From assembly GCA_043756865.1 (NCBI GenBank), contig JAYUQG010000030.1, positions 30,703 through 94,702 on the forward strand: DNA of 64,000 nt, read 5' to 3'. The notes below the pieces were generated by a model. The model did not search any database and was not told where the DNA came from. It saw only the letters and a list, made by a program, of their open reading frames with translations. The stretch is from a bacterium (GTDB lineage: Bacteria > Patescibacteriota > Minisyncoccia > Phycocordibacterales > UBA6899). How positions within the stretch are numbered: position 1 is the first letter of the stretch; each line of letters starts with the position of its first letter. Below, one piece after another: positions 48,542 through 61,257 of the stretch. The position numbers and the translations under genes were made by a program.

Positions 48542-48925
48542 AAAACCGAAATGGGCAAAGGGCTGGCGTTTCATTACAATATGCCCGTTTTTAATATTAT
48601 TCTCCTGTCACTAGAGGGGTAGTTTAAACTTATCTCCATTCTGTCATAAATCATAGGTTGCCCAAGATCTCTCATTCGAAAAAAATTGACAAATTTAAAA
48701 AAAATTATAGGCTGATTCTCAGCACCAACGGAGTCTATATGATCCTTACTCTCGCGATTGTCATTCGTGCCACTGACAGCTATCACGTCAACTACATCTG
48801 CCACACGCAGGTGAGCGAAGTTCCCAATGAGCCCAACCGGCGCGCATCGATCATCGCTCAGACCATGACTAAATTCATCAGTGACAACATCGGTAACGGC
48901 GATACGCTCATCTCTGCGACCCCGC

Positions 48926-48949
48926 TTCTCAGCTAAAAGCCCATGTTGG
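48926..48949 (+). terminator. rho-independent terminator immediately upstream of the first repeat copy
   Basis: AAAA-gcccatgttgggc-TTTTTTT. Confidence 0.7.
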
Positions 48950-48964
48950 GCTTTTTTTATGCAA

Positions 48965-49053
48965 AACTATTCGCCTATTCACCACATCACCACAGAGAGT
49001 ACTTCCATCTCTAACTCGCTTTGCTCGAAGGGGCTTAGATAGCTAGAGAATAG
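48965..49053 (+). repeat. MITE-like imperfect palindromic repeat, long form (copy 1)
   Basis: aactattcgcctattcaccaca...actcgctttgctcgaagg...agagaatag; left arm ctattcgcctattc, right arm (a)gagaatag. Confidence 0.8.
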
Positions 49054-49102
49054 AAAAAACCCCAGCGCGGTGGCTGTGGTTTCACTCGACGAAGCCTCGG
49101 GC

Positions 49103-49459
49103 TTACAACTGAAAGAACGGGGAAAGGGACGGTGGTGTGGAAACAATGGGCTTGAACTGAATAGCGGTCCACGGATCATCCTTCTCCTTCCCATGAAGGA
49201 GCAATGTGCTCTGCGCAAAGTCGAGACGCGGGTCCTCCGGATAACCAGCGGAAACGGCAACCTCAAACCATGATGGACACATCAGTGCGTCCACAAAGGA
49301 CAACGGCTGGATGTGTGTCCTCGGACCCTTAGTCGCAATCAGACTTTTGACGCCCTCGAAGGTGAGGTTCTGTTCCACGTCGTAGGCAATGCCCCTTTCG
49401 GCCGCCAACTGTGTCAGAGACTTTTCGGTATTCGCTCCCAATACAAAGATTGCAGACAT
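49103..49459 (-). CDS. hypothetical protein
   Basis: 118-aa ORF between repeat copies 1 and 2. Confidence 0.35.
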   Translation of the reverse strand: MSAIFVLGANTEKSLTQLAAERGIAYDVEQNLTFEGVKSLIATKGPRTHIQPLSFVDALMCPSWFEVAVSAGYPEDPRLDFAQSTLLLHGKEKDDPWTAIQFKPIVSTPPSLSPFFQL

Positions 49460-49572
49460 CTGTTCCTTTCAGTTAAATGAACAAGCAAACTTTAGCATGA
49501 TTATCAATTTTGTCAATATTTTATACCCTCCTTTAGTTTCTCGCTCCAAAGGACTGGTGCTTTGTAAGTGCT

Positions 49573-49762
49573 CTTCGCCTATTCACAAGAGAGTACTTCC
49601 AAATTCTAATATAAAAAACTATTCGTCTATTTGCCGCGAGGGTGCTGCAAAATTTTAGCACTCCGGGCACCACGGAGAGTATTTCCATTTTTATAAATGG
49701 ACTACCATTAAGAAAAATTAAGTCACTCGATGAAATTTTTGGTCGCGCGAGAATTAGGAATA
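49573..49762 (+). repeat. MITE-like repeat, degenerate extended copy (copy 2)
   Basis: cttcgcctattcacaagagagtacttccaa...aactattcgtctatttgccgcgagg...ggtcgcgcgagaattaggaatag; contains two left-arm units and one right arm. Confidence 0.65.
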
Positions 49763-49796
49763 GAAAAACCGGGGCATTGCCCCGGGTCGAGAAAGT

Positions 49797-50027
49797 TCAG
49801 TCGAATGCGTCGCGCAATGCCTCGGTCAGCTCCTGTAGTGACTCGTTGTCGCGGGGATGTGCGTTAGCGTGTCCCCCAACGATAAGCGAGACATCGTGGC
49901 AGGGATCGGAACCTTGGCAGATCTGTTCCTTGAGTTTGCACGAAGCTTTCGTAGAGAGGTCGATGCGGTGTTCGCGCCCCTGATCATCGACGACAACGAT
50001 TCTGAGTGTCGACATAGTTAACTCCAT
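49797..50027 (-). CDS. small hypothetical protein
   Basis: 76-aa ORF with a hairpin terminator (ccggggcaatgccccgg-TTTTT on the minus strand) at 49767..49790. Confidence 0.3.
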   Translation of the reverse strand: MELTMSTLRIVVVDDQGREHRIDLSTKASCKLKEQICQGSDPCHDVSLIVGGHANAHPRDNESLQELTEALRDAFD

Positions 50028-50078
50028 TCATTGGGGCAAAACGCCCCGAGTGAATCTAACCTGCTACTTCTTTTTTGT

Positions 50079-50198
50079 CAAAAATATTCGCCTATTTGCC
50101 AGTTACATCCTTATTCGCCTATTCACCACACAGAGTACTTCCAATCCCTAACTCGCTTTGCTCGAAGGGATTTAGGTCGCGCGCGAATTAGAGAATAG
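50079..50198 (+). repeat. MITE-like repeat, long form with duplicated left arm (copy 3)
   Basis: aaaatattcgcctatttgcc-agttacatcc-ttattcgcctattcaccacacagagtacttccaatccctaactcgctttgctcgaagggatttaggtcgcgcgcgaattagagaatag. Confidence 0.8.
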
Positions 50199-50448
50199 AC
50201 AACATGTGCCTTGCGACAGGGTGTGCTGTTTTTGAGAGGCGATAATGAATCGTGAGGCTCCGCTGGTCTTTCTCAAGCATACCGACTGCGTACAAGATAC
50301 CGAGATGTTTGGAGGTGGCCTTGAAGGAAAGCTTAATTTCCTCCGCAATATCCCCTACTGTCGCCTCACGTGACTTCTTTAAGTATTTGAGAATTGCGAG
50401 GCGGCGCGCGTTCGCTAGCGCTTTCATCTGCTTTTCGATGTCTTTCAT
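50188..50448 (-). CDS. ArsR/SmtB-family HTH transcriptional regulator
   Basis: LANARRLAILKYL...ATVGDIAEEIKLSFKATSKHLGILYAVGML is a typical ArsR winged HTH. Confidence 0.75.
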   Translation of the reverse strand: MKDIEKQMKALANARRLAILKYLKKSREATVGDIAEEIKLSFKATSKHLGILYAVGMLEKDQRSLTIHYRLSKTAHPVARHMLSIL

Positions 50449-50470
50449 TTCCCGATAATATCATCTCCAA

Positions 50471-50504
50471 AACTATTCGCCTATTCGCGCGAATTAGAGA
50501 ATAG
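50471..50504 (+). repeat. MITE-like repeat, short 34-bp form (copy 4)
   Basis: aactattcgcctattcgcgcgaattagagaatag. Confidence 0.85.
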
Positions 50505-50640
50505 AAAGTGGAGGGTATTGAGGCTTGTCTTGATTCAAATCAATACTCTCCCTCCCACTCACATCACCATTGACAAATTAATTTGTTATGGTATTTTTTT
50601 CACAGACAACCTGTTTCACTCGACCGCAAGGACCAGCAGT

Positions 50641-50961
50641 ATGAGCAACATCTCTCTTTCCCCCATCGACTTTATCGCTGCTTCATTCGCAGCAGGCAAA
50701 GAACCGGATCTCTACAACTGCGGCTGGAGTACTGAGGCGGTGTTCGAAACACTGCAGTCAGCAAAACAGATGGGCAAACCCTGGGCTGAACTCATGGCAA
50801 AGCGAATCACCGAGCTCTCAGGTGGCACCGTCCAAGTGACGATCGCCGACGGTCGCGGGCCGTACAAAAGCCCCAGCTTGGTACTCCAAGCCGTATATCC
50901 CGACAGCACCCGCATGATTGTGATCGGCGCAGGCATGAATGCCGTCCGCTTCCTCGATTGA
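50641..50961 (+). CDS. hypothetical protein
   Basis: ATG 50641 (MSNISLSPIDF...) with an AAGGAC SD, C-ending codon bias and terminator 50982..51009. Confidence 0.35.
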   Translation: MSNISLSPIDFIAASFAAGKEPDLYNCGWSTEAVFETLQSAKQMGKPWAELMAKRITELSGGTVQVTIADGRGPYKSPSLVLQAVYPDSTRMIVIGAGMNAVRFLD

Positions 50962-50981
50962 CTGCACACGAACCTACCACA

Positions 50982-51009
50982 CCCCGCTCCGGCGGGGTTT
51001 GTTTTTTAT
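50982..51009 (+). terminator. rho-independent terminator abutting repeat copy 5
   Basis: ccccgctccggcgggg-TTTGTTTTTTAT. Confidence 0.75.
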
Positions 51010-51023
51010 CTGAGAAACAACAA

Positions 51024-51116
51024 AACTATTCGCCTATTCACCACACAGAGTACTTCCAATCCCTAACTCGCTTTGCTCGAAGGGATTTAGGTCGCGCGCG
51101 AATTAGAGAATAATAG
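51024..51116 (+). repeat. MITE-like repeat, long form (copy 5)
   Basis: aactattcgcctattcaccacacagagtacttccaatccctaactcgctttgctcgaagggatttaggtcgcgcgcgaattagagaataatag. Confidence 0.85.
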
Positions 51117-51130
51117 AAAATACGAGGAAA

Positions 51131-51178
51131 TTAATTATTCATTATAATACGCCATGGCGTATTATAATGAATAATTAA
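51131..51178. repeat. 48-bp perfect palindrome (copy A of 2)
   Basis: ttaattattcattataatacgccatggcgtattataatgaataattaa is exactly self-complementary, centred on CCATGG, with two TATAAT hexamers; identical to 53925..53972. Confidence 0.9.
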
Positions 51179-51223
51179 ATACGTTTAAAAAAGCGGAAAA
51201 GGTTGTGGAGGGGTGGTTGGTCG

Positions 51224-51242
51224 GGCGCGAATTAGAGAATAG
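51224..51242 (+). repeat. MITE right-arm fragment (solo)
   Basis: ggcgcgaattagagaatag without a paired left arm. Confidence 0.6.
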
Positions 51243-51246
51243 TTTG

Positions 51247-51271
51247 AACTATCCGCAAATTCCGGATAGTT
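51247..51271. promoter_or_regulatory. perfect 9-bp inverted repeat (candidate operator) upstream of the NYN gene
   Basis: aactatccg-caaattc-cggatagtt, 100 bp upstream of ATG 51373. Confidence 0.35.
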
Positions 51272-51372
51272 GCCGACTTGGCAGTATGTGCATTACTTGC
51301 AAGGACTGAATTTCGAATTAATTTTGTTTGCTCAAACATATGATACTGCAACCCACAGGAGAACAACACGAA

Positions 51373-51900
51373 ATGATTCCTTTTGATATACTCTTATACG
51401 TGCAACCTCAGAAAAAAATACACATCTATATTGACGGCAACAACCTTTATCGAGGCGCGAAAGAGCTTGGTTTTGAAATCGACTACAAAAAATTTCGTAA
51501 TTGGCTCCGACAAAAATATAACGCAACAAATGTATATCTGTTCATCGGCCTCGTTCCCGATCGTGTAAAGTTTTACGAGCATCTACAAGAATGCGGTTTT
51601 ATTCTTGTGTTCAAGCAAACAATATCTGTCGAAGGGCGCATAAAAGGAAATTGCGACGCTGAACTTGTCTTGAAAGCAGTGTCAGATTTTTACACCAAAA
51701 CTTTTGACAAATGTATTCTCGTAACAGGAGACGGCGACTTCGGGTGCTTGGTTGAATTCTTGGCGCGCGAAAAGTCGCTTTTGGGTATTATTGCTCCTGA
51801 CAAGAAAAAATGTTCAATCTTGCTGAGAAATAAGAACGTTGAAATCACCTTTCTCAATGACCTTTATCACAAGTTTTCCACAAAAACTGATAAAGCATAA
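51373..51900 (+). CDS. NYN-domain (LabA/PIN-like) predicted ribonuclease
   Basis: Start MIPFDILLYVQPQKKIHIYIDGNNLY with an AGGAGA SD; NYN catalytic Asp residues in IDGNN, DAEL and TGDGDF. Confidence 0.7.
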   Translation: MIPFDILLYVQPQKKIHIYIDGNNLYRGAKELGFEIDYKKFRNWLRQKYNATNVYLFIGLVPDRVKFYEHLQECGFILVFKQTISVEGRIKGNCDAELVLKAVSDFYTKTFDKCILVTGDGDFGCLVEFLAREKSLLGIIAPDKKKCSILLRNKNVEITFLNDLYHKFSTKTDKA

Positions 51901-52083
51901 AAAGAAAAAGCCCCCAATGCATACGTATATGCACCAGGGTCTCTTTCATGGTTATGGGCAAATTATATCAATATTTAGCCATAACGCAAGGATCCAAAAA
52001 TCAACCAAAGTTAGGCAAAAGTATGCCATTAAATCATATCAATACCACTGTGCATTTTTTGCACATTCCTAGTTCCATTAGGA

Positions 52084-52170
52084 CTTTTCGCCTATTCCAC
52101 CACACAGAGTACTTCCAATCCCTAACTCGCTTTACTCAAAGGGATTTAGGTCGCGCGAATTAGAGAATAG
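52084..52170 (+). repeat. MITE-like repeat, long form (copy 6)
   Basis: ttttcgcctattccaccacacagagtacttccaatccctaactcgctttactcaaagggatttaggtcgcgcgaattagagaatag. Confidence 0.85.
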
Positions 52171-52360
52171 AAATGGGGGGAAGAATTTGACTACTGATTT
52201 ACTAATAAAATCGTGACTCGATTTTCGTTTTCATAACAATTCTGCATGGAAGGGCTCCATGAAATTTTGTGTCTCACCATATTAAAAAATATTAGGTATT
52301 GACAAATACAAATTTGTTTGTTATTATATATTTGTTCTTTTCTTCAAACGGAGACTCGCA

Positions 52361-52756
52361 ATGAGCTACAACGGCTACACGGTTCCCACGTACACCATAG
52401 TCACCGCCAACTTCGCAATCATGCCGGCTGACCTCCCGACCAAATTCGAGCACCTCTGGGAGGCCTTCGACGAAAGCGAGACGGAAGTCTCGGCAGCCTA
52501 CATCTTGCGCTACTGCCAAGTACAAGGCAGCTGGGCACCGTTCTCGTTCGAGCAGATCAACGCCTTCTATCAGCGGAAGCCGAAGCGTGGCAACTTCACG
52601 TTCAACCGACTGATCGAACCGGGCATGCACTACGGAATGCCCGGCGAACGTCACCTGACTGGCGGTGGCTGGATCGTGAAGAACGAGTCCGACGGCCTGT
52701 ACTACATCACAGACGACTTCATCAGCTGCGTGCATCGTTCCCTGACGAAGCGCTAG
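52361..52756 (+). CDS. hypothetical protein
   Basis: 131 aa with a GGAGA SD, extreme C-ending codon bias and terminator 52774..52804. Confidence 0.4.
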   Translation: MSYNGYTVPTYTIVTANFAIMPADLPTKFEHLWEAFDESETEVSAAYILRYCQVQGSWAPFSFEQINAFYQRKPKRGNFTFNRLIEPGMHYGMPGERHLTGGGWIVKNESDGLYYITDDFISCVHRSLTKR

Positions 52757-52773
52757 CGCATCACTTTCCCCAT

Positions 52774-52804
52774 CCCGTGCATCCGTGCACGGGGTTTGTT
52801 TTTT
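52774..52804 (+). terminator. rho-independent terminator abutting repeat copy 7
   Basis: cccgtgcatccgtgcacggg-GTTTGTTTTTT; the junction sequence is near-identical to that at 50982..51023. Confidence 0.75.
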
Positions 52805-52821
52805 ATCAAAGATCAAACAAA

Positions 52822-52854
52822 ACCATTCGCCTATTCGCGCGAATTAGAGAATAG
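52822..52854 (+). repeat. MITE-like repeat, short form (copy 7)
   Basis: accattcgcctattcgcgcgaattagagaatag. Confidence 0.85.
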
Positions 52855-52890
52855 ATAAGTGGGGAGAAATAGAGAGTAGAGAATGGAAAA

Positions 52891-53298
52891 CTAGTTCTTG
52901 GTGTAGGTGAAGGTGTGGGGGGAGGTGCCGTGGAGGGTGATTTTGTTTTCGTGGCGCAGGAGGGTGAGGAGGCGGGTGGCGGTAGTGCTCGGAAAATCAA
53001 GGTCTTCCATGACGTCTTTGTGGGTGATTGAAGACTTCGTGTCGAACAGGCTCATGATGAGGTCGGTCTTTAGCGCCATGATCTCATCGCGCTTTGCTGT
53101 CCCCTGTTTGCTCATGTCGATAAGGAAATCGTGTTTGATAGCCTCGACCTCATCATCTGTGGGTGGCGGGCAGACCTGCGAGGCTGGCTCTCGGTCGCGA
53201 TAGACTATTTTTTCCACTTCTACGATTTTTTCTACCACTCGTTCAACAACACGTTCTATTACCTGTGCCTCTGGTGTTGATGGAGTAGAACTGTGCAT
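52891..53298 (-). CDS. hypothetical protein with a C-terminal winged-helix-like region; N-terminal boundary uncertain
   Basis: The ORF track extends to 53823, but the upstream 175 codons traverse three repeat copies and an 18-bp tandem repeat. ATG at 53298 (MHSSTPSTPEAQVIERVVER...) is proposed as the start. The C-terminal ~100 aa look globular. Confidence 0.35.
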   Translation of the reverse strand: MHSSTPSTPEAQVIERVVERVVEKIVEVEKIVYRDREPASQVCPPPTDDEVEAIKHDFLIDMSKQGTAKRDEIMALKTDLIMSLFDTKSSITHKDVMEDLDFPSTTATRLLTLLRHENKITLHGTSPHTFTYTKN

Positions 53299-53301
53299 GG
53301 A

Positions 53302-53326
53302 ACCATTCGCGCGAATAGGAGAATAG
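53302..53326 (+). repeat. MITE-like repeat, truncated short form (copy 8a)
   Basis: accattcgcgcgaataggagaatag. Confidence 0.65.
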
Positions 53327-53360
53327 TTTGAGGTATCCGGGGCTTGAGTTGGTGGGGTGG

Positions 53361-53394
53361 AACTATTCGCCAATTCGCGCGAATTAGAGAATAG
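53361..53394 (+). repeat. MITE-like repeat, short form (copy 8b)
   Basis: aactattcgccaattcgcgcgaattagagaatag. Confidence 0.85.
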
Positions 53395-53427
53395 ATTTGG
53401 GGAGGGTGGGGTGGGACTAGGGCTGGA

Positions 53428-53505
53428 ACCATTCACCACAGGAGTACTTCCATTTTCATCTCCCTCCGGTCGTGAAAATTTGGTCGCGCTCTCATTAGGG
53501 AATAG
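53428..53505 (+). repeat. MITE-like repeat, degenerate long form (copy 8c)
   Basis: accattcaccacaggagtacttccattttcatc...ggtcgcgctctcattagggaatag. Confidence 0.6.
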
Positions 53506-53630
53506 ATCGGAGGGGTCGATGATGGGAAGGTTGGAGACGGAGGTGGGTTCAGTTACCACAGGTATCGCCCCTGTTGCATCTAGCACGGGCAGTTGTGAAA
53601 CGGTGGACTCCCCCACGCCTTCCTGACTTA

Positions 53631-53684
53631 CATGGCTTTCAGGAGTTGCATGACTTTCAGGAGTGGCATGACTCTCCAGACTCC
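53631..53684. repeat. 3 x 18-bp tandem direct repeat
   Basis: catggctttcaggagttg / catgactttcaggagtgg / catgactctccagactcc; encodes ESHATP x3 if the minus-strand ORF is translated. Confidence 0.7.
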
Positions 53685-53865
53685 CAGCTGGTGCCACAGG
53701 CACCACCTCAATCTCAATGGGTATCACCTCGATTGTCTCGGGTGTCATGGGCGTGTCGAGTGTCGCAAGCGTCGCAGTTGTCGCTGGCGGTACCCCATTA
53801 GCATTGGTATTGGTCTCATCCATAACGACATTGTATCAAAAAAAATTCGTTGTAACCCCACATAA

Positions 53866-53899
53866 AACTATTCGCCTATTCGCGCGAATTAGAGAATAG
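53866..53899 (+). repeat. MITE-like repeat, short form (copy 9)
   Basis: aactattcgcctattcgcgcgaattagagaatag. Confidence 0.85.
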
Positions 53900-53924
53900 A
53901 AAGGTGGTAAAAAAACGAGGGAAA

Positions 53925-53972
53925 TTAATTATTCATTATAATACGCCATGGCGTATTATAATGAATAATTAA
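53925..53972. repeat. 48-bp perfect palindrome (copy B of 2)
   Basis: Identical to 51131..51178, again preceded by aaa(a)acgagg(g)aaa following a MITE copy. Confidence 0.9.
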
Positions 53973-54098: not shown

Positions 54099-54953
54099 TT
54101 ATTCTTCTTTTCGAACCACTTGATCAAGGGTTTTGCCATCAGATTCCCTTTTCCACTCAGTCCATCCATTTGCATTCCTACCGAGTACATTCTGTGCTGC
54201 GCCTGAGGGACTACTGAATACATAGTCACTCACAAATACATAAGACTCAGGTCCGTCGTCGCGCAACACGCCGTCTTCCATGAGTATTGGACGTAGTTTG
54301 AGATAGCGCTCCTTGGCGCTATCAACAATTTCTTTTCTTGCTCTTGAGCCCGCACGCACAACCATTCCTTCACTGGTGTAGAGTCCCCTCGCCTCTGCTC
54401 CAGGGCCACGGCAAATATATATTTCTTCAGGATTCTTCTCAAAATCTGTAACCTTTTTTAGAAACGTCCATCCGATCGTTGCTAGGATAAGTTTTATGTA
54501 TTCCGCGAAAGTCTCCACGTCTGCACGATCCGACTCGTTCAGCCTTGTTTGACTAGGCTCATTGCCATTTTCAAGACGGACGCGGTTTGCTTCCTTTGTT
54601 TCTCTAATGAGTAGCTCTTCGAGATATTTTGCGTGCGCTTTATTTAGAGAGCCCTGTGTGGAGACAAAACACACTGCGGTACCCCAAAAGTCTTTATTTT
54701 TGTTGTGGCTCCTGATCCGTTCTTTTACGTTCTCACTTTCACCGATATACAGTGAGCCGGTTTCCTGCCCTATATCATTTTCAAGTAGAAAGTAGACTCC
54801 TTGTGCATCTAAGTCAACACGTTGCATCGCCAAATCGATACTATCGCGAGGAATGACGATGGCACGCCCTGTCCAGTTCATGGTTTCAATAGTACGCAGC
54901 CCTGTAGGATTCCCCTCCGCGAGAAAAACCTTGATAGTTGGTCGTGTCTCCAT
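54099..54953 (-). CDS. GIY-YIG nuclease domain protein with C-terminal DUF4357
   Basis: GIY-YIG motif GVYFLLENDIGQETGSLYIGESENVKERIRSHN; the C-terminal ~100 aa match the DUF4357 pattern typical of RM-associated genes. Confidence 0.7.
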   Translation of the reverse strand: METRPTIKVFLAEGNPTGLRTIETMNWTGRAIVIPRDSIDLAMQRVDLDAQGVYFLLENDIGQETGSLYIGESENVKERIRSHNKNKDFWGTAVCFVSTQGSLNKAHAKYLEELLIRETKEANRVRLENGNEPSQTRLNESDRADVETFAEYIKLILATIGWTFLKKVTDFEKNPEEIYICRGPGAEARGLYTSEGMVVRAGSRARKEIVDSAKERYLKLRPILMEDGVLRDDGPESYVFVSDYVFSSPSGAAQNVLGRNANGWTEWKRESDGKTLDQVVRKEE

Positions 54954-55043
54954 CTCTCGATTAGATCACGCGTGGATATTTGACACAAGTCTAATTTCCC
55001 ATGAAATGCTTCAATTCCCTATTTTTTCTACACTTTGATTGAA

Positions 55044-57422
55044 TTACGACGGGGTTTTGTCGTACAGGTATGGCTGGAAGTCTACGAATGCTCGGCTGAT
55101 CTCTTCAGGATCACCGAGATCGGCTACGGCATCAGAAATTGAATTGTTGTATTTGAGACGAAGCAACGGATTAAGCTGTTCTTGACTAAGCTCCTCCACA
55201 CCCACAGTCACATAGTGAGAAAGCACGAAATCAAGAAATGCTTGCTGCTGTGTCTTTAAGTGCGATGTGATGTGCAATCTTGCCTTCGCCGCACGTTCTT
55301 CTCGCGTCATTGGTGGGATTGCATATGCCACGTTAGCAAGCACATCAAAGATGTCACTCTTCTCTGCCTCAATAATCTTTTGCATCTCGGCAAGTTGGTC
55401 ACGACCAAATCCCTTCTCGGCTAGTCCTGCCAAGAGTTTCGCTCGGGTATCCGGTGCACTCCAAATAGTGCGGAGTTCATCTTCGTTCTTGAAGAAATCA
55501 GGTAGCTTACCAAATAGCATTTCCATGAACTGTTGTGCAGACATGGGCTTGCCGTCCGGATGCCAGAACGTTGTCATCATCATGTGTTGAATAGCGCGCT
55601 CTTTCCCGTCGGCAAGTTTCACCTTGATCTTCGACTTCTTGTTGCACACACACGGATCTTGTCCGCACACTGGGCATGCTTCCTTCGGGCATTCACAAGG
55701 AGTTTTGCCACACTTAGTACATGGTTTGGGCGGAGGAACTTTACACACGCATGGTTTCTGCCCGCACTTCTTGCATTGCTCGTCTTCCTCTGGAGGACCA
55801 TCCCATGCAGGGTCGTTGAAATGATGGTATGCCTTCACAAAGTCGTAGATGGTGAAATAATCCTTGCCGTCAAAGAGACGTGTGCCACGTCCAATGATCT
55901 GCTTGAACTCGATCATAGAATTAATGGGGCGCATCAGCACGATGTTGCGAATGTTTCGTGCATCAACACCAGTCGAAAGTTTTTGCGAAGTGGTGAGAAT
56001 GGTGGGAATGGACATTTCATTGTCCTGAAAATCGCGCAAGTGCTGGTCGCCAATTGCTCCATCATTGGCAGTAACACGCTGACAATAATTCGGGTCAGTA
56101 CTTGTCTTCACCTGATTGATGAAGTCGCGAACCAAAAGTGCGTGTGCTTGGTTTGCACAAAATACGAGCGTCTTCTCGTTCTGGTTGATTTGGTTCATGA
56201 ATACCTTCACGCGATGCATTTCACGCTCACGAATCACAATGAGTCTATTAAACTCTGCTTCCTCGTAGCGTTTCCCTGCTTCAATATCTCCCTCCACAAC
56301 TGTGTCATCGGGCGTATAGACGTACTCATCCATCGTCGTTGAGATCTGCTTCACTTTGAATGGGGTGAGAAATCCATCATTGATCCCCTCCTTTAGTGAG
56401 TATACATAGACTGGCTCACCAAAATAGGCATACGTGTCTACGTTGTCTTTGCGCTTTGGTGTTGCAGTGAGTCCGAGCTGCACAGCGGGCTCAAAATACT
56501 CAAGAATTGCACGCCAATTGCTCTCGTCCTTCGCGCCACCACGATGACATTCGTCGATGATGATGAAATCAAAGAAATCCTTGGGGTATTCACCAAAGTA
56601 TGGAGTATCCCCCGGACCACTCAAGAAGGTCTGAAATATGGTAAAGAAGATGCTCCCGTTTGTCGGCACTCTCCCCTTTTGTCGTATTGAGCTGGGGTCA
56701 ATGCGCACGAGTGCATCTTCGGGAAAAGCAGAGAAAGCGTTATATGCCTGATTGGCGAGAATGTTTCTGTCTGCAAGAAAAAGAATGCGGGACTGACGCG
56801 TTGCTTCACGACTCAGATTCCATCGACTCTTAAACAACTTCCATGCAATCTGGAAAGCAATGAAGGTCTTCCCTGTTCCTGTCGCAAGCGTGAGCAACAC
56901 GCGCTGCTTGCTGTCCGCTATGGCATCTAAGGTCTTCTCGACAGCAATATCTTGATAGTAGCGGGCGGGATGACTGCCACCTTTGTCTTCAAACGGAATG
57001 GCGGCAAATTGGTCTCTCCATGTATTTTGCTCAGAGAAGGTCTGATTCCAGAGCTCTTCAGGGGTTGGATATTGTGCAATTTCTCCCTCTGTGACCTCTC
57101 CCGCCATATCAATCGCATAGATACCCTTTCCGTTCGTTGCATAGGTATACCGAATGGCCATCTTTTCTGCGTAGCTCTTTGCTTGCCCTACTCCCTCGGT
57201 CAGTTCTTCGTCCCACGCCTTGGCCTCCACGACCGCGAGCTTATGATTGCGATAGACCAAAACATAATCAGCGATTTGTGGTTTTGCTCGACGACCTTGT
57301 CCTTCAAGGCGACCCTGTGTGATGTGATACTCGCGCAAGATACGACTGCCATCAACAACACCCCAGCCTGCCGCCTTCAGTGCTGGATCAATGTGCTCTG
57401 CTCGTGTTTCTGCTTCATTCAT
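55044..57422 (-). CDS. hsdR: type I restriction enzyme R subunit HsdR, with an inserted triple Cys-rich repeat
   Basis: N-terminal HSDR_N (MNEAETRAEHIDPALKAAGW), helicase motifs I (LTLATGTGKT) and II DECHRG, motifs III-VI, and a unique insert CKKCGQKPCVC...CTKCGKTPCEC...CPVCGQDPCVC. Confidence 0.9.
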   Translation of the reverse strand: MNEAETRAEHIDPALKAAGWGVVDGSRILREYHITQGRLEGQGRRAKPQIADYVLVYRNHKLAVVEAKAWDEELTEGVGQAKSYAEKMAIRYTYATNGKGIYAIDMAGEVTEGEIAQYPTPEELWNQTFSEQNTWRDQFAAIPFEDKGGSHPARYYQDIAVEKTLDAIADSKQRVLLTLATGTGKTFIAFQIAWKLFKSRWNLSREATRQSRILFLADRNILANQAYNAFSAFPEDALVRIDPSSIRQKGRVPTNGSIFFTIFQTFLSGPGDTPYFGEYPKDFFDFIIIDECHRGGAKDESNWRAILEYFEPAVQLGLTATPKRKDNVDTYAYFGEPVYVYSLKEGINDGFLTPFKVKQISTTMDEYVYTPDDTVVEGDIEAGKRYEEAEFNRLIVIREREMHRVKVFMNQINQNEKTLVFCANQAHALLVRDFINQVKTSTDPNYCQRVTANDGAIGDQHLRDFQDNEMSIPTILTTSQKLSTGVDARNIRNIVLMRPINSMIEFKQIIGRGTRLFDGKDYFTIYDFVKAYHHFNDPAWDGPPEEDEQCKKCGQKPCVCKVPPPKPCTKCGKTPCECPKEACPVCGQDPCVCNKKSKIKVKLADGKERAIQHMMMTTFWHPDGKPMSAQQFMEMLFGKLPDFFKNEDELRTIWSAPDTRAKLLAGLAEKGFGRDQLAEMQKIIEAEKSDIFDVLANVAYAIPPMTREERAAKARLHITSHLKTQQQAFLDFVLSHYVTVGVEELSQEQLNPLLRLKYNNSISDAVADLGDPEEISRAFVDFQPYLYDKTPS

Positions 57423-58075
57423 GATCTTCGTTTCTTTACTGGATACTGTTTCACTGAAACTCCGTCGTACCGCTCCTTGAGCCCCTGATAAATGAGACCA
57501 ACCAGTGGCTTGTAGTCATTAGCGGAATCGATCTGCGCGAGCGCCTGACGATAACGATTCTTGTTTTCTTGCTCTACTTTTATGGAGATACCGATCAGTC
57601 CATAGCGCTCCAAGATCAAGTTTGCTGCTAGGCGTGCAGTGCGTCCATTGCCATCTCGGAATGGATGCACACAGGTAATAGTGTAGTGCACCCAAGCCGC
57701 AAGCTGAATAACCTGCTCAACCATCTTGTGTACTTTCTGTGTATTTCCATTTCTCCCCTTGATGACCCCTTCGGCCTTTTCTATCGCTTGGAGTTTTTGC
57801 GCTAATTCTGCTGCTCGTTCCTCCATGAGGAAAGGCACTCTCGAGTGATGCGGTGGGATGTGCTTGGAATTCGTGATCTCTAGGTTTTCTGTACGATACT
57901 TTCCCGCGATCTCAGTCCACGCATCCCTAAATATTTCCTTGTGAATCTCTTTGATAGTTTCGACGGAAATCGGCTTATGCAACTGAGCAAACTTACGCAC
58001 AAAACGAGAGGCTCGAATGACTCCGATTGCCTCTCGTTTTTGCAGCTCCTCCTCAGTGCGTGGTCGCTCAGCCAT
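57419..58075 (-). CDS. Fic-family protein (AMPylation/Doc-like toxin domain)
   Basis: Fic motif HPFRDGNGRTARL; 218 aa; sits between hsdS and hsdR. Confidence 0.85.
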   Translation of the reverse strand: MAERPRTEEELQKREAIGVIRASRFVRKFAQLHKPISVETIKEIHKEIFRDAWTEIAGKYRTENLEITNSKHIPPHHSRVPFLMEERAAELAQKLQAIEKAEGVIKGRNGNTQKVHKMVEQVIQLAAWVHYTITCVHPFRDGNGRTARLAANLILERYGLIGISIKVEQENKNRYRQALAQIDSANDYKPLVGLIYQGLKERYDGVSVKQYPVKKRRS

Positions 58076-58082
58076 GGAATGA

Positions 58083-58277
58083 CTAGGCTACCTTTTGTGC
58101 AAGTTTTTCGAATTCTCCGCGATCAAGCTTGCTCCCCTCGAGGGCACTGGAATAATAGGCGTGTTCAATATCCCAACCCTTCTCAAGGGCGGACTTCTCT
58201 TTCGGCGTGAGCTTCGAAATCTGCTTCTCTGCTTGTTTCTTACTCGCCATGAGGTGTACGAGCTGTAGATTCTTCAT
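58083..58277 (-). CDS. small ORF carrying the Fic inhibitory alpha-inh motif (VbhA-like antitoxin, or split N-terminus of a class II Fic)
   Basis: 64 aa with the S/T-x-x-x-E-G/N motif SSALEGS. The stop is 7 nt before the fic ATG, in a different frame. Confidence 0.45.
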   Translation of the reverse strand: MKNLQLVHLMASKKQAEKQISKLTPKEKSALEKGWDIEHAYYSSALEGSKLDRGEFEKLAQKVA

Positions 58278-58357
58278 ATATCGACTATACCGACTAATGG
58301 GTAATTTGACAAGTTCTCTTGAAATGGCCTTCTTTGCATAGGGCTCATCTCATTATA

Positions 58358-59548
58358 TTACAATTTCCCTGTGAAGGCCTGATGGAGAAGCGACTTCTTC
58401 AGCGCCTTCAGCGCGTCGAGTTTGCGTTTGTAGATGGATTCGAGGTGTTGGGTTTCGGATTCGAGTTTCCTGATTATTGTTACGACTCTTTCTTGTTCAG
58501 TATGAGATGGGAGAGCAATTGGGTAAGGTTCGAGAGTTTCTTTGGTCACCCCGATCTGACCTGCCGCTCGCTCAGAATGGTAAATAATGTATTCGAGGAT
58601 TGTGGAGTGCTTCAGGAAGTAAAAAAGGAAGTCGCGGGAGATTTTTGATTCATCTGGCACTGCTTTCATCAATGCGACGTTATAAGCCCCTTCTAGTCCA
58701 CGGAGGATTTGAAAAAGTGGGGGGCCGTAGCGTCCAATCATTACGTCATCAGCGTTGCAGAATCGTCTTGCCTGAGCGCGCGGAATGTAAACGACATGGT
58801 TGTCGCTCTTGTAGTCACGAATCTGAATGAGGCGGATGTTATCTTCCTGCTTGGTTTTCGAGAATACCAGCTTCGGTGGCTGTGAGCCACCGATAAACTC
58901 ACAAACTTCTCCCAGGGATGACTCCGCCCACCCCGGGCCGCGCTGTGTGAAGACAGATTGGAGGTGGCTTTCAAAGAGGGCGCGTGCGTTTTGCAGGTTT
59001 TTCTCGGCATTGGCTTTTGCTGTGGCGATGCCCTTAAACGCTTCGTCGAGCAGACCAACGATCCGCTGCTGTTCGTCCAGCGGTGGGACGGGAATAGTGT
59101 AATCCTCGATGAAATCCTTGGACACTCGCTTGTGCCCGACTGCGCCTGTCATCCGCGCCGAACCTTCGACCCGAAATGTTTCACGAGAAAGGAAGTAGTA
59201 GAGCCATTCCTTGCTGACTGTTGGGTCGGGGCGAAACACATAGTATTCGCTCGAACCGAAGCCGATTCCGTTCTTCAGCCCATCTGCGATTCCAAGTTTC
59301 CCGTTTTCAAAGCAAGGCGTGATTTTCGCGAGAAGAACATCACCATCGGCGAAGTAAGTGTAGCTTCCGACGACTGCGGACAGCGGCTTCGTTTGAGTCG
59401 CCTGCACGAACTTCACGTCAATACCCATGTCCTCCATCGGCAGGAACGAGACCAGCGAAGAAGATGAAACCTTTTCACGTGCTTCGCTTTTCGGGGGCTT
59501 TATCTGGCACACCTCCGCGAGCGCCTTTGTATGCCACCCCTTCTTCAT
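58358..59548 (-). CDS. hsdS: type I restriction-modification specificity subunit HsdS
   Basis: Start MKKGWHTKALAEV overlaps the hsdM stop by 4 bp (ATGA). Two target-recognition domains are separated and followed by the conserved LPPL.EQ..I and coiled-coil repeats. Confidence 0.85.
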   Translation of the reverse strand: MKKGWHTKALAEVCQIKPPKSEAREKVSSSSLVSFLPMEDMGIDVKFVQATQTKPLSAVVGSYTYFADGDVLLAKITPCFENGKLGIADGLKNGIGFGSSEYYVFRPDPTVSKEWLYYFLSRETFRVEGSARMTGAVGHKRVSKDFIEDYTIPVPPLDEQQRIVGLLDEAFKGIATAKANAEKNLQNARALFESHLQSVFTQRGPGWAESSLGEVCEFIGGSQPPKLVFSKTKQEDNIRLIQIRDYKSDNHVVYIPRAQARRFCNADDVMIGRYGPPLFQILRGLEGAYNVALMKAVPDESKISRDFLFYFLKHSTILEYIIYHSERAAGQIGVTKETLEPYPIALPSHTEQERVVTIIRKLESETQHLESIYKRKLDALKALKKSLLHQAFTGKL

Positions 59549-61002
59549 AGCAGCGCTTTGATATTCTCCAGCACTTCTGCGCTCTCGGCGTCCAGCGCGG
59601 CGATTTCCTTCATAATGTCTTTTGGACTCTTGTGCACGATTTCTTCTCCGCCGTTCGGATTCTTTACGGAGAGATCGAAAGTCTTCTGGTCGATGGTGGA
59701 AATATCTACGGACCACGACTTCAGTGAGTCGGCCTTTGTTTTTTGAAGCTTGATGAACTCTGCAAGATCGGCATCATTCAAGGGATTAGTCTTTCCCATG
59801 TTGCGACCGGGCTCCAGCTGGTAGTACCAGACCTTGCGGGTCTTTGATCCTTTCTCGAAGAAGAGCACGACCGTCTTCACTCCCGCACCCTGGAATGTAC
59901 CACTCGGCATATCGAGCACAGTATGGAGGTTGCAACTCTCCAAAAGGAGCTTCCGCAAGCTGACTGAGGCATTGTCTGTGTTTGAGAGGAACGTGTTCTT
60001 GATGACCACGCCACCGCGTCCCCCCGCTTTGAGCATCTTGATGAAATGCTGAAGGAAAAGAAACGCAGTCTCGCCGGTACGAATAGGAAAATTTTGCTGC
60101 ACTTCTGGTCGCTCTTTCCCACCAAATGGCGGATTGGCGAGGACTACTTCATAGCGATCCTTTTCTTGAATGTCAGCAAGGTTTTCAGTAAGCGTGTTGG
60201 TGTGGATGATGTTGGGCGCTTCTATACCATGGAGGATCATATTCATGATTGCAATCACGTAGGCGAGGGACTTCTTTTCCTTGCCGTAAAACGTGCCCTC
60301 CTGCAGTTTTTTGTCTTGCGCAACGGTACGCTTGGGATTCATTTCCTGTAGATAGTCGTACGCCTCACAAAGGAAGCCCGCGGAGCCAACTGCAGCGTCG
60401 TAAACACGCTCACCGAGCTTGGGTGCAGTCACCGCCACCATGGCGCGAATGAGTGGGCGTGGCGTGTAATACTCGCCACCGTTTCTGCCAGCATTCCCCA
60501 TGTTCTTGATCTTGGTTTCGTAGAGGTGTGAGAGCTCGTGCTTCTCAGTCTGGGAACGAAATCGGAGTTCATCGATATGGTCGATGACTTCGCGGAGATT
60601 ATACCCACTCTGCATGCGGTTTTTTATCTCGCCGAAAATCTCACCGATCTTGTATTCGATGGTGTTCGGACCGCTCGCCTTTTGCTTGAAAGCGTGGAGA
60701 TACGGGAAAAGCTTTTGATTCACAAACGCGAGCAAATCCTCGCCTTTCATTGAGGTGTTATGGTCGAGCTTTCCATCATTTCCCCGCGGAGCTGCCCACG
60801 TGCCCCAACGATATTCTGGATCGAGGATGTAGGAGTATTTCTTGCCGTCTACCTTGGCCTCCATGGCCTTGTCGTGCTCCAGATCGTCGAGGTATTTTAG
60901 GAAGAGGAGCCAAGAAGTCTGCTCGGTATAGTCGAGTTCGCTCGATGATCCGGCATCCTTATGCAGTATGTCGTCGATATTCTTGAAAGTTTGCTCAAAC
61001 AT
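59545..61002 (-). CDS. hsdM: type I restriction-modification N6-adenine DNA methyltransferase HsdM
   Basis: N-terminal HsdM_N region, an AdoMet motif and the catalytic NPPFGG. Confidence 0.9.
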   Translation of the reverse strand: MFEQTFKNIDDILHKDAGSSSELDYTEQTSWLLFLKYLDDLEHDKAMEAKVDGKKYSYILDPEYRWGTWAAPRGNDGKLDHNTSMKGEDLLAFVNQKLFPYLHAFKQKASGPNTIEYKIGEIFGEIKNRMQSGYNLREVIDHIDELRFRSQTEKHELSHLYETKIKNMGNAGRNGGEYYTPRPLIRAMVAVTAPKLGERVYDAAVGSAGFLCEAYDYLQEMNPKRTVAQDKKLQEGTFYGKEKKSLAYVIAIMNMILHGIEAPNIIHTNTLTENLADIQEKDRYEVVLANPPFGGKERPEVQQNFPIRTGETAFLFLQHFIKMLKAGGRGGVVIKNTFLSNTDNASVSLRKLLLESCNLHTVLDMPSGTFQGAGVKTVVLFFEKGSKTRKVWYYQLEPGRNMGKTNPLNDADLAEFIKLQKTKADSLKSWSVDISTIDQKTFDLSVKNPNGGEEIVHKSPKDIMKEIAALDAESAEVLENIKALL

Positions 61003-61257
61003 AATTGGCTAAGTATCTATTGAGCAAGCATAAGCTTTTTACCCCTCTTTTACAATCAGTAATGCTTGCGCCTAGTTAAAGGAGGCTTTAACAGAAGGCG
61101 TGAGCAAATTGCATATCTTATTATGCGACGCAATTAAAAGAATAACTGACTTATGCCCGCTCACATGCAACCTAACAAATTTTAGTAGTTACAAAGGTAT
61201 GTTAAATTTACTAAATTTACTTAAAGCTACAGAGATTTATCTAGACCTTGTCCTGTT

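Follow-up and report, generated by a model that had tools for sequence, protein, structure and literature searches.

A 32-bp palindromic site of CPR bacteria forms an array around a small ArsR-type gene

The repeats in the analysed stretch of DNA are copies of a 32-bp palindrome that occurs across the candidate phyla radiation (CPR) bacteria and whose only conserved partner is a gene encoding a small ArsR-type DNA-binding protein, for which the palindrome is probably the docking site. The site has also spread into other genes and marks the borders of small gene modules that are exchanged between genomes. By which mechanism it spreads is not known, and no description of it was found in the literature searched. 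The best reading is that of a mobile, operator-like palindrome of an ArsR-type protein.

The repeat array in the window

The analysed window (a stretch of 64,000 nucleotides) contains 13 copies or fragments of one element at positions 48967-53899, all in one orientation although the flanking genes run both ways, and none elsewhere. The right arm GCGCGAATTAGAGAATAG, searched with up to 3 mismatches, gave 12 matches against 0.06 expected, and the left arm CTATTCGCCTATTC, searched with up to 2 mismatches, gave 12 against 0.22 expected; all of these matches lie within the array. The observation of a dense, same-orientation repeat array thus is confirmed, with copies exactly where the original prediction had placed them. 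The similarity of the terminator-to-site junctions at 50993 and 52790 is also real (47 nt at 87% identity, with predicted terminators at 50981-50998 and 52772-52795), as is the in-frame location of three copies inside ORF 52891-53823. Two corrections are necessary: the conserved unit is 32 bp, not 34 bp, because the flanks carry no information, and the asymmetric short form is not a stable hairpin (DNA fold z = -0.8). The features of the array are as follows.

48967-49053 (+), copy 1: long form with left arm CTATTCGCCTATT, the CACCAC hairpin insert and a degenerate right arm (..TAGCTAGAGAATAG), between the convergent terminators of modules A and B
49571-49609 (+), copy 2a: fragment with left arm CTCTTCGCCTATT plus a truncated CACCAC insert
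49619-49763 (+), copy 2b: extended long form with left arm CTATTCGTCTATT, a divergent and longer CACCAC-type insert and the right arm GCGCGAGAATTAGGAATAG, between the promoter of module B and the terminator of module C
50084-50198 (+), copy 3: long form with a duplicated left arm (50084-50096 and 50111-50123); its right arm overlaps the arsR stop codon (..SIL* = tCTATTCTCTAA on the - strand), and its left end abuts the -35 box of module C's promoter
50188-50448 (-), arsR-like gene: encodes an 86-aa, Cys-free ArsR/SmtB-family winged-helix protein
50473-50504 (+), copy 4: short 32-bp form immediately upstream of arsR; on the - strand the variant arm is followed after 13 nt by an extended -10 box (atgaTATTAT) and then the ATG, which is the autoregulatory position
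51026-51113 (+), copy 5: long form whose 86-nt core (51027-51112) is 100% identical to 50112-50197 in copy 3; the right arm ends ..AATAA; 3' of module E's terminator
51212-51242 (+), copy 6: 5'-truncated long form, ..GGTTGGTCGG plus GCGCGAATTAGAGAATAG
52084-52170 (+), copy 7: long form with a 1-nt shifted junction and a 2-nt shorter core, between the NYN module and module G
52823-52854 (+), copy 8: short form (CCATTCGCC..) between the terminator of module G and the 3' end of ORF H; flagged as terminator-like on the - strand
53305-53326 (+), copy 9: left-truncated short form, 7 nt upstream of the internal ATG (53298) of ORF H, in frame in the long ORF
53363-53394 (+), copy 10: short form with a T-to-A change (CCAATT) that removes the - strand stop codon, read as LFSNSRELANS inside ORF 52891-53823
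53424-53505 (+), copy 11: degenerate long form, in frame in ORF H; the insert hairpin has a different sequence but keeps its base pairing
53868-53899 (+), copy 12: short form identical to copy 4, the last copy of the array
48739-53823 (both strands), eight small modules bounded by the copies: A 48739-48936 (+), B 49103-49459 (-), C 49797-50015 (-), arsR, E 50641-50961 (+), NYN nuclease 51373-51900 (+), G 52361-52756 (+), H 52891-53298/53823 (-)

Most of the modules have their own TTGACA-type promoter and terminator. Homologues of H and of the NYN nuclease are joined by a site in another site-containing locus (L044), where NYN is inverted relative to the sites. The form of about 90 bp, which had been taken as a longer version of the element, is the 32-bp site split after the first core base by a separate 57-nt hairpin element that also occurs alone.

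Distribution, partner gene and insertion of the site

The core of the element is a 32-bp dyad, CTATTC[T/G]C[T/C][A/T]ATT-CGCGCG-AATTAGAGAATAG, with an arm-to-arm gap of exactly 6 bp in 201 of 222 sites. The exact 19-mer recurs in at least 238 CPR/Patescibacteria loci from many classes, so that a local tandem duplication, one of the outcomes that would have overturned the original prediction, is ruled out. Since one arm and the core were fixed by the exact 19-mer search, their apparent invariance is partly due to ascertainment, although the loci found via the protein still show TCTCTAATTCGCGCGAAT. The possibility of an already catalogued repeat family, also named in advance as a refutation, was examined by searches of Rfam and of the literature, neither of which found the element.

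The ArsR-like family is the top neighbour of the site, with fixed geometry, and was found bracketed by sites in 28 of 119 loci selected by the site. In the reciprocal test, 5 of 5 homologues chosen independently of the site had it as well and were likewise bracketed by sites. The upstream copy overlaps the core promoter of the gene in 48 loci, where the site is followed by an extended -10 box and then the ATG, and in these 5 of 5 homologues; in one subfamily the variant arm itself is TGnTAGAAT. The assignment of the non-metal protein to the ArsR/SmtB winged-helix family is based on Pfam HTH_5 (5e-10), NCBIfam NF033788 and similarity to the PDB structures of HlyU (9e-7) and NolR, and its family comprises at least 728 clusters. 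No conserved regulon was detected, as no family occurs in more than 2 of 71 downstream genes.

Orphan copies are genuine insertions. A site in uvrC adds 33 nt compared to empty alleles, the loci L165 and L171 form an empty-site pair, and dus exists with and without the site. In-frame copies occur in dus, uvrC, mnmA, fmt and other genes. The comparison of cassette content between relatives, suggested beforehand as a check, revealed breakpoints of homology and cassette indels at the sites: one flank can be 97-99% identical while the other is unrelated. Of 193 unique sites, the 164 non-edge sites were in tandem (81), intragenic (38), convergent (26) and divergent (19) contexts, and terminator-targeted insertion, as inferred from the junctions in the window, thus is not general. 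Target-site duplications, which were also to be looked for, are not a general feature of the sites, and no integrase or transposase is linked to them. The orientation of the sites follows the direction of replication in 44 of 51 loci (44 versus 7, p = 1e-7) and in 31 of 34 loci where GC skew is clear. Polarity follows GC skew 7 to 0 when genes disagree with skew, and the bias persists 28 to 6 in loci without arsR.

Taken together, the interpretation offered by the original prediction is partly supported. It holds for a small, palindromic, MITE-like repeat that no catalogue names, that partitions small gene modules, lacks a canonical attC core and can sit in frame in genes. It does not hold for terminator targeting as a general rule or for the 90-bp form, and it listed ArsR as mere cargo, whereas this gene is the one conserved partner of the element. 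A function of the arms as a hairpin is not supported either, because the common asymmetric form folds no better than shuffled sequence and the sequence is conserved rather than the pairing.

Interpretation of the array

With moderate confidence, the array is explained as copies of a dyad-symmetric DNA site of 13-6-13 architecture, each arm holding two ATTC/GAAT boxes, which is the cognate binding site of the winged-helix protein encoded within the array. The analyses demonstrate the CPR-wide occurrence of the site and protein families, the bracketing of the gene by two copies (the upstream one overlapping its core promoter with the variant arm on the promoter side, the downstream one overlapping the stop codon), the insertion of orphan copies between genes and in frame inside unrelated housekeeping genes, the interrupted nature of the 90-bp form, and the uniform polarity of copies within a locus and its agreement with replication; they also demonstrate that accumulated copies delimit small self-contained accessory modules whose order, content and orientation differ between relatives, with homology breakpoints at the site. 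By contrast, it is only inferred that the protein binds the site as two dimers and autorepresses its own gene, that orphan copies spread by a process that leaves no target-site duplication and needs no linked enzyme (candidates being replication-associated template switching or recombination at the protein-bound palindrome), and that modules are exchanged by recombination between copies. This view is supported by the strict arm spacing and the confinement of information content to the 32 bp; the asymmetric form is not a hairpin, so that recognition is of double-stranded sequence. However, binding is deduced solely from adjacency, geometry and dyad symmetry, and many copies sit where an operator has no obvious use, including the convergent and intragenic ones and 4 copies in the window that follow the 3' ends of + strand genes. 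An 86-aa HTH protein cannot catalyse insertion, and no enzyme was identified. Furthermore, the interrupted long forms would not bind a dimer as drawn, yet they persist with covarying hairpins, and the replication polarity is stronger than predicted by gene co-orientation alone, which hints at a mechanism tied to single-stranded DNA or the replication fork that this model does not specify.

Alternative explanations and related systems

The best of the alternatives, though unlikely, is an integron-like or Xer-like platform, in which the sites would be recombination sites analogous to attC or dif for an unlinked tyrosine recombinase, each module would be a cassette integrated as a circle, and the ArsR protein would be an accessory factor or just the commonest cassette. 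The 13-6-13 layout resembles loxP, FRT and dif cores, sites are uniformly oriented regardless of gene direction, breakpoints and cassette indels fall at sites, and cassette-specific site variants exist. The polarity of the arrays is tied to replication, as reported for chromosomal integrons, where 25 of 30 sedentary chromosomal integrons have attC bottom strands on the leading-strand template (PMC5371416). On the other hand, there is no GTTRRRY core, the 32-bp size is below the attC range, the asymmetric form does not fold, and the modules carry their own promoters and lie in both orientations. A phmmer search with E. coli XerC found only one tyrosine recombinase in 1.59 Mb around the sites and none in the window, and none is enriched in array loci. 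The site also inserts into places that had no prior site (uvrC, the L171 promoter), which site-by-site recombination does not do, and the occurrence of several loci per genome and the lack of a GC-skew switch in the window show that it is not dif.

It is doubtful that the element is a hairpin handled as single-stranded DNA, of the REP/RAYT or IS200/IS605 kind, and mobilized in trans on the lagging-strand template by an HUH tyrosine transposase encoded elsewhere. The lack of target-site duplications, the strong orientation bias relative to replication and the resemblance of the gene flanked by its repeats to a RAYT gene flanked by REPs are consistent with this possibility. Moreover, inserted segments are almost wholly palindromic (about 42 nt in uvrC), palindromy extends 3 nt or more beyond the 32 bp in 18 of 169 sites against 2.6 expected, and a variant palindrome with both arms changed symmetrically is present in locus L255. 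However, the commonest form has three arm mismatches and folds no better than shuffled sequence, sequence rather than pairing is conserved, a GTAG or CGTC tag is lacking, the copy number is a few per genome rather than hundreds, and the flanked gene encodes an HTH protein and not an HUH enzyme, although a proper search for HUH enzymes was not carried out.

Even less likely is a polar replication-fork barrier analogous to Ter sites with RTP or Tus, in which a small winged-helix dimer would bind a ~30-bp site with a strong and a weak half, its gene would abut and be autoregulated by its own sites, and stalled forks would make the sites recombination hot spots. RTP is a winged-helix protein, and the rtp and tus genes adjoin Ter sites. 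The agreement of polarity with GC skew, its uniformity within loci, the low copy number per genome, and the flanking of the protein gene by its sites and its location on the leading strand in 16 of 17 loci would fit. However, about a quarter of the sites are perfect palindromes and so cannot be polar, ten sites in 5 kb are excessive for a fork trap, and the fork meets the consensus arm first. The dus-embedded copy sits beside dnaX in several lineages, which does not suggest a terminus. The position of the sites relative to origin and terminus was not mapped. An ordinary, vertically inherited regulon without mobility, suggested by the autoregulatory layout at arsR, the dyad symmetry and the low copy number, is already largely refuted by the empty-site comparisons. 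The lack of a conserved target gene set, the many convergent and intragenic sites and the pairs of loci with only one related flank also speak against it.

Among known systems, Rickettsia palindromic elements (RPEs) are likewise short palindromic repeats with no known transposase that are inserted between genes and in frame into unrelated housekeeping genes, adding a tolerated peptide (PMC10969869). RPEs are about 100-150 bp, fall into ten families and are confined to Rickettsia, whereas the element described here is 32 bp, is conserved at the nucleotide level across a superphylum, is tied to one DNA-binding protein gene, forms arrays that bound gene modules and has replication polarity. REP/BIME elements with RAYT genes are also imperfect palindromes of 20-40 bp that cluster, and in both cases a gene is flanked by its own cognate repeats, but the present element lacks the GTAG or CGTC tag (described in PMC3733652), has few copies per genome, of which about 20% are intragenic, is not a stable hairpin in its common form and flanks an ArsR-type HTH gene instead of an HUH transposase gene. 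Integron attC arrays without an integrase (CALINs) share the same-oriented imperfect inverted-repeat sites separating single-gene units, the variable site length with a variable middle and the link of array polarity to replication (PMC5371416). They differ in that the present element has no R box (GTTRRRY), is too short, is conserved in sequence rather than structure, inserts de novo into genes and bounds modules that have their own promoters and lie in both orientations, with no IntI present. Operators of the ArsR/SmtB family (for example SmtB 12-2-12 and NolR (A/T)TTAG-N9-A(T/A)) are likewise dyad-symmetric sites overlapping the regulator's own promoter; the consensus arm contains ATTAG (NolR motif from PMC12445080), and HlyU and NolR are the closest solved relatives of the protein. 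Known operators, however, are not dispersed as insertions, embedded in frame in essential genes or conserved base for base across phyla, and binding of the present site by the protein was not tested. Ter sites with RTP or Tus share the ~30-bp site with a strong and a weak half, the polarity relative to replication and the location of the gene of the small DNA-binding protein next to its own sites, but in the present system there is no evidence of a terminus location, many copies are perfect palindromes, the arrays are dense and the protein is ArsR-type.

Distribution and sequence of the palindromic site

The region at 48.9-53.9 kb holds 13 copies or fragments of one element, whereas none were found elsewhere in the 64-kb window. 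The right arm GCGCGAATTAGAGAATAG gave 12 matches against 0.06 expected, and the left arm CTATTCGCCTATTC gave 12 against 0.22 expected. All copies point the same way, while the eight small genes between them run in both directions, and most of these genes have their own TTGACA-type promoter and a terminator. Pfam recognised only an ArsR-type HTH protein and a NYN nuclease among them. The observation behind the original prediction, a dense array of same-orientation repeats, is thus confirmed, including the reported junctions between terminators and sites, which are real. Its interpretation as a MITE-like or integrase-less cassette (CALIN-like) element was only partly supported. The features of the window considered here are the following:

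48.9-53.9 kb, array of 13 copies or fragments of the site, all in one orientation
50188-50448, gene of the ArsR-type HTH protein
52891-53823, ORF containing three copies in frame
50124-50180, 51039-51095, 52097-52153 and 53433-53487, copies of a ~57-nt element with a hairpin
51126-51178 and 53920-53972, two identical copies of a 53-bp AT-rich perfect palindrome
52844-52825 and 53889-53870 (- strand), sites scoring as weak intrinsic terminators
54099-63040, GIY-YIG/DUF4357 protein and further ORFs immediately right of the array

Confinement of the copies to this single locus had been named in advance as an outcome that would speak against a dispersed element, and this was not observed. The exact 19-mer CGCGCGAATTAGAGAATAG occurs in 118 stretches of species-representative genomes, nearly all of which are CPR/Patescibacteria MAGs of many classes (Saccharibacteria, Paceibacteria, Nomura-, Kaiser-, Wolfe-, Lloyd- and Harrisonbacteria and others), and in at least 120 further metagenome stretches. 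Usually one or two loci were found per contig, even on contigs of 250-600 kb. When aligned, the unit is a 32-bp dyad, CTATTC[T/G]C[T/C][A/T]ATT-CGCGCG-AATTAGAGAATAG, with an arm-to-arm gap of exactly 6 bp in 201 of 222 sites and an information content that stops at the 32-bp borders. Each arm carries two ATTC/GAAT boxes. One possible caveat is that the search fixed one arm and the core; however, loci found through the protein instead still show TCTCTAATTCGCGCGAAT. About a quarter of the sites are perfect palindromes, whereas the rest have one variant arm, most often GCCT or GCTT. Variant arms were more homogeneous within than between loci (0.68 versus 0.31), which is suggestive but weak because one allele dominates. 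As single-stranded DNA the asymmetric form folds no better than shuffled sequence (z = -0.8), in contrast to the perfect form (z = -5.8), so the sequence is conserved and not the base pairing, and a hairpin function of the main site was rejected for the asymmetric form. On the strand transcribed in the arsR direction, the asymmetric site plus its flanking T-run at 52844-52825 and 53889-53870 scores as a weak intrinsic terminator (ATTCGC-loop-GCGAAT, then GTTTT), giving the site a possible direction-specific terminator or insulator role.

In the ~90-bp form, which had been described as carrying an insert between the same arms, inserts always lie between the core and one arm. The type found in the window is a ~57-nt unit, CACCACA-RGAGTACTTCCA-hairpin-TWGGTCGC, inserted after the first core base. 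The same unit occurs free of any palindrome in three of the other loci compared (L004, L163 and, twice, L232), was found in the opposite orientation relative to the arms in locus L063, and is also present in loci L210, L249 and L160. Its inner stem shows compensatory changes in 5 of 5 pairs, and one free copy in L232 is followed by a terminator. It could be a small RNA gene or a separate miniature mobile element. The folding of the long form, which had been proposed as a test, showed that the whole structure is not unusually stable (z about -0.2 to -0.3 as single-stranded DNA). The 90-bp form is therefore a site interrupted by a second small element. A GC-rich hairpin, CCCCGTAGTGAGCTTTGCTCTACTACGGGG, has the same GAGCAAAGCTC centre as the loop of the window's insert and was found in promoter spacers next to sites (L123 at ~1910-1945, L042 and L229, about 19 nt outside the site) and, in L206 (323-363), within a site. 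The AT-rich perfect palindrome present twice in the window, GGAAATTAATTATTCATTATAATACGCCATGGCGTATTATAATGAATAATTAA, lies 13-21 nt 3' of a site copy in each case, is a very stable hairpin (z = -8.2) with TATAAT boxes on both strands, and is absent from all 255 other loci and from viral contigs.

The arsR-like partner gene and the dispersed copies

Clustering of all ORFs of the first 118 loci plus the window put one family far ahead, namely homologs of the window's ArsR-like protein, which were found in 28 of 119 loci. The gene (86-90 amino acids, no cysteines) has one site centred 20-57 bp before its ATG, and a second site overlaps its stop codon, since ..SIL* is encoded by tCTATTCTCTAA. The family has at least 728 clusters at 60-75% identity; where a source names the organism nearly all names are CPR MAGs, and one record is labelled Nanoarchaeota. 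Starting from the protein, 5 of 5 independently chosen homologs have the site just upstream, and 3 also have one at the stop. In 48 loci an extended -10 box (TGnTATAAT) lies 4-21 nt after the site and 6-25 nt before the ATG, and in one subfamily the variant arm AATGGTAGAATAG is itself TGnTAGAAT. The dyad-symmetric site therefore overlaps the core promoter of arsR with the variant arm on the promoter side, which is the layout of an autorepressor, although binding by the protein was not assayed here. The protein is a non-metal ArsR/SmtB member (NCBIfam NF033788), and its closest solved relatives are HlyU and NolR. NolR recognises (A/T)TTAG half-sites (PMC12445080) and the consensus arm contains ATTAG, but this resemblance is a lead and not a test. 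In some lineages (L246-L248, with the gene content serS, x, dus, dnaX, arsR) the arsR-like gene lies directly downstream of dnaX and dus, and dus is next to dnaX in about 11 loci; the dus-embedded site and the arsR sites may therefore once have formed a single neighbourhood. A link to phages was rejected, as the ArsR protein has only two weak phage hits and the site is absent from viral contigs.

The other copies do not behave like a regulon. Of 164 non-edge unique sites (of 193), 81 lie between tandem genes, 38 are inside genes, 26 are between convergent genes, and 19 are between divergent genes, and the genes starting next to a site share no family in more than 2 of 71 cases. Intragenic copies are read through in frame, either as LFSNSRELENR or, shifted by one base and with the variant arm that removes the TAG codon, as YSLIRANKRI. 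The hosts include dus (15 or more loci, always after ..GRAIFGNPW), uvrC, mnmA, fmt, a methylpurine glycosylase, and proteins that by motif look like AlaS and YchF. A heat-shock or repair flavour of the cargo (HSP20, glycosylases, NUDIX) did not hold up as enrichment.

Comparison with empty alleles showed that the copies are insertions. Among 120 close UvrC homologs most read ..NCKP-GQL-KPC.., whereas two read ..NCRP-PDYSLIRANKRIVS-KPC.., which is +11 codons. At the DNA level GGG CAA CTC is replaced by a 42-nt, almost wholly palindromic segment containing the site, a net gain of 33 nt without target duplication. A third lineage (L255, JAHFLE010000007.1) carries a perfect 30-bp variant palindrome at the same spot after FPYSNC, TATACCCTAATTC-TGCA-GAATTAGGGTATA, in which both arms and the core are changed symmetrically and which may be a sister family with altered specificity. 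Locus L163 carries the site in the other frame in the same loop. This loop of CPR UvrC (after ..FPYSNC in homologs P0121-P0150; DNA in L015, L253, L254 and L255) is a hot spot for unrelated insertions of 15-50 residues (P0126, P0131, P0134, P0142 and P0146), of which P0134 and P0146 share a SGSRV..GMT motif, suggesting other translated repeat families. Furthermore, a promoter that is intact in L171 (TTGTCC-N17-TATAGT) carries a ~53-bp insertion with the site in L165, and dus genes exist with and without the site. Target-site duplications, a proposed check on mobility, were not general: 11 flanking direct repeats of 7 nt or more were observed against 4.7 expected, nearly all from one lineage. 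In contrast, palindromy extending 3 nt or more beyond the 32 bp was enriched (18 observed against 2.6 expected).

The gene content between sites, whose comparison among relatives had also been suggested beforehand, differs with breakpoints at the sites. Loci L123 and L171 are 99% identical for 300 bp up to a site and unrelated about 18 nt beyond it, and L051 and L105 are 97% identical up to the site and unrelated immediately after it. L123 has rhodanese-[site]-X, where L165 and L171 have rhodanese-[site or none]-S-[half-site]-X. The nearest relatives of the window (L240, with 94% ArsR identity, and L242) share the arsR-plus-site unit, OmdA, Fic, and a homolog of ORF H (the ORF with the in-frame copies), but the modules in between differ. 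The closest loci are L044 and L021 from a Ca. Lloydbacteria MAG, and L044 joins homologs of ORF H and the NYN gene through a site, with NYN inverted relative to the sites compared with the window. Immediately right of the array lie a GIY-YIG/DUF4357 protein identified by Pfam and then ORFs that by inspection of their translations look like a type I restriction HsdR, a Fic protein, and further restriction-modification subunits (54099-63040). If so, the array abuts a defence-type island; a Fic gene is also near the array in the relative L242.

Replication polarity and criteria of known element classes

Asymmetric sites in a locus share one orientation (8 of 8 in the window, 5 of 5 in L105, and in 15 of 16 multi-site loci). 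This orientation is opposite to the sign of local GC skew in 44 of 51 loci (44 versus 7, p = 1.2e-7) and in 31 of 34 where |skew| > 0.03. Where gene direction and skew disagree orientation follows skew 7 to 0, and between convergent or divergent genes it follows skew 17 to 5. The bias persists, 28 to 6, in loci with no arsR. The arsR gene itself lies on the leading strand in 16 of 17 loci, and all 31 asymmetric sites in arsR loci are co-oriented with it. Part of this bias may simply reflect promoter-bearing sites being kept co-directional with replication; however, it exceeds the bias of the neighbouring genes. In the window the + strand has negative skew, and the fork therefore meets the consensus arm first and moves in the direction of arsR transcription.

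With respect to integron attC sites and CALINs, the ends of the element are CTATTC ... GAATAG, and no GTTRRRY, and no pair of conserved R''/R' boxes (RYYYAAC ... GTTRRRY), is present on either strand. The short form of 32 bp and the weak folding of the asymmetric and long forms also do not agree with a single strand folding into an imperfect hairpin of 55-140 nt. The uniform site orientation resembles a cassette array, but the modules have their own promoters and terminators and lie in both orientations instead of being mostly promoterless and co-oriented, so that this criterion points both ways. An integrase or transposase had been named as a partner to look for. A phmmer search with E. coli XerC found no tyrosine recombinase in the window and one in 1.59 Mb of site-bearing loci; whole genomes were not searched, which leaves an integrase elsewhere in the genome neither supported nor excluded. 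Among the 25 most frequent Pfam families of 110 ORFs from 18 array loci there was no recombinase or transposase, although rare single hits could be hidden below these.

Of the features of a MITE, the element has terminal inverted repeats (two 13-bp inverted arms) and insertion polymorphism between relatives (uvrC, L165 versus L171, and dus), but no general target-site duplication and none at the uvrC insertion. The only gene flanked by the arms is arsR, and since no genome-wide search for a transposase was made, derivation from and mobilisation by a related insertion sequence is left undecided by these data. A REP or BIME identity is disfavoured by the absence of a GTAG or CGTC tag, by the common form not being a stable stem-loop, and by the low copy number and 38 intragenic copies among 164 sites instead of hundreds of extragenic copies per genome; a cognate RAYT (HUH Y1) gene was not searched for. 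The covariation of site polarity with replication direction is a property of Ter sites with RTP- or Tus-type fork barriers. Whether the sites form two opposed groups around the terminus was not examined, as their position relative to the terminus was not mapped, and the perfect palindromes argue against a set of exclusively asymmetric sites. A dif site was rejected because several separate loci lie on one contig (L015 and L068; L001 and L025) and because the cumulative skew is monotonic across the window, without the switch that marks the terminus. Rfam at gathering thresholds gave nothing over the whole window, in which no tRNA genes were found either.

Interpretation and comparison with known systems

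The best-supported reading is that the 32-bp dyad is the binding site of the ArsR-type protein. The conservation and polarity of the sites, their insertion relative to empty alleles, and the homology breakpoints were seen directly in the compared sequences, whereas binding is inferred from the invariant adjacency, promoter overlap, and dyad architecture. In this view the operator-like sequence has itself become a small dispersed element, which inserts without target duplication, tolerates translation, accumulates at the edges of accessory modules, and serves as their exchange point. Neither an enzyme nor a mechanism of spread was identified. The replication polarity, the wholly palindromic inserted segments, and the symmetric variant palindrome point to a replication-associated process, for which template switching at a protein-bound or extruded palindrome, or recombination at stalled forks, are candidates, but this step is speculation. 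An integron/Xer-like system with an unlinked recombinase, a REP/IS200-type element handled as single-stranded DNA, and a Ter-like polar barrier are less likely but not excluded, whereas an ordinary regulon is contradicted by the lack of a recurrent downstream gene family.

A more far-reaching possibility, which is considered unlikely but is not ruled out, is that CPR bacteria possess a previously unrecognised system for gene-module capture and shuffling without an integrase, in which the palindrome and its dedicated winged-helix protein would act together as the recombination platform. Protein-bound sites might, for example, stall or redirect replication, so that copies and adjacent modules would be inserted, excised, and exchanged in a replication-oriented way. 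This would be a functional analogue of integrons built from different parts, and would be of high interest if true.

CPR/Patescibacteria have tiny, poorly understood genomes and almost no characterised regulatory or mobile DNA. A 32-bp sequence conserved base for base from Saccharibacteria to Parcubacteria and paired with one small DNA-binding protein gives a directly testable protein-DNA pair for this superphylum. It also explains the recurrent short peptide insertions in essential CPR proteins, and provides a marker for variable accessory islands in MAGs and a possible cause of assembly breaks there. If the sites really drive module exchange, this would be a new route of gene flow in organisms that largely lack classical mobile elements.

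No description of the sequence or of a CPR palindromic element was found in the literature searched. The element works most like Rickettsia palindromic elements, which are in-frame palindromic insertions with no known transposase (PMC10969869), combined with an ArsR-type autoregulatory operator. Its arrays resemble integrase-less attC clusters in outline, including the replication polarity reported for chromosomal integrons (PMC5371416). It does not satisfy the defining criteria of attC, REP, dif, and classical MITEs, and is therefore regarded as a distinct small palindromic repeat with superphylum-wide nucleotide conservation, a dedicated DNA-binding protein partner, and replication polarity as its notable traits.
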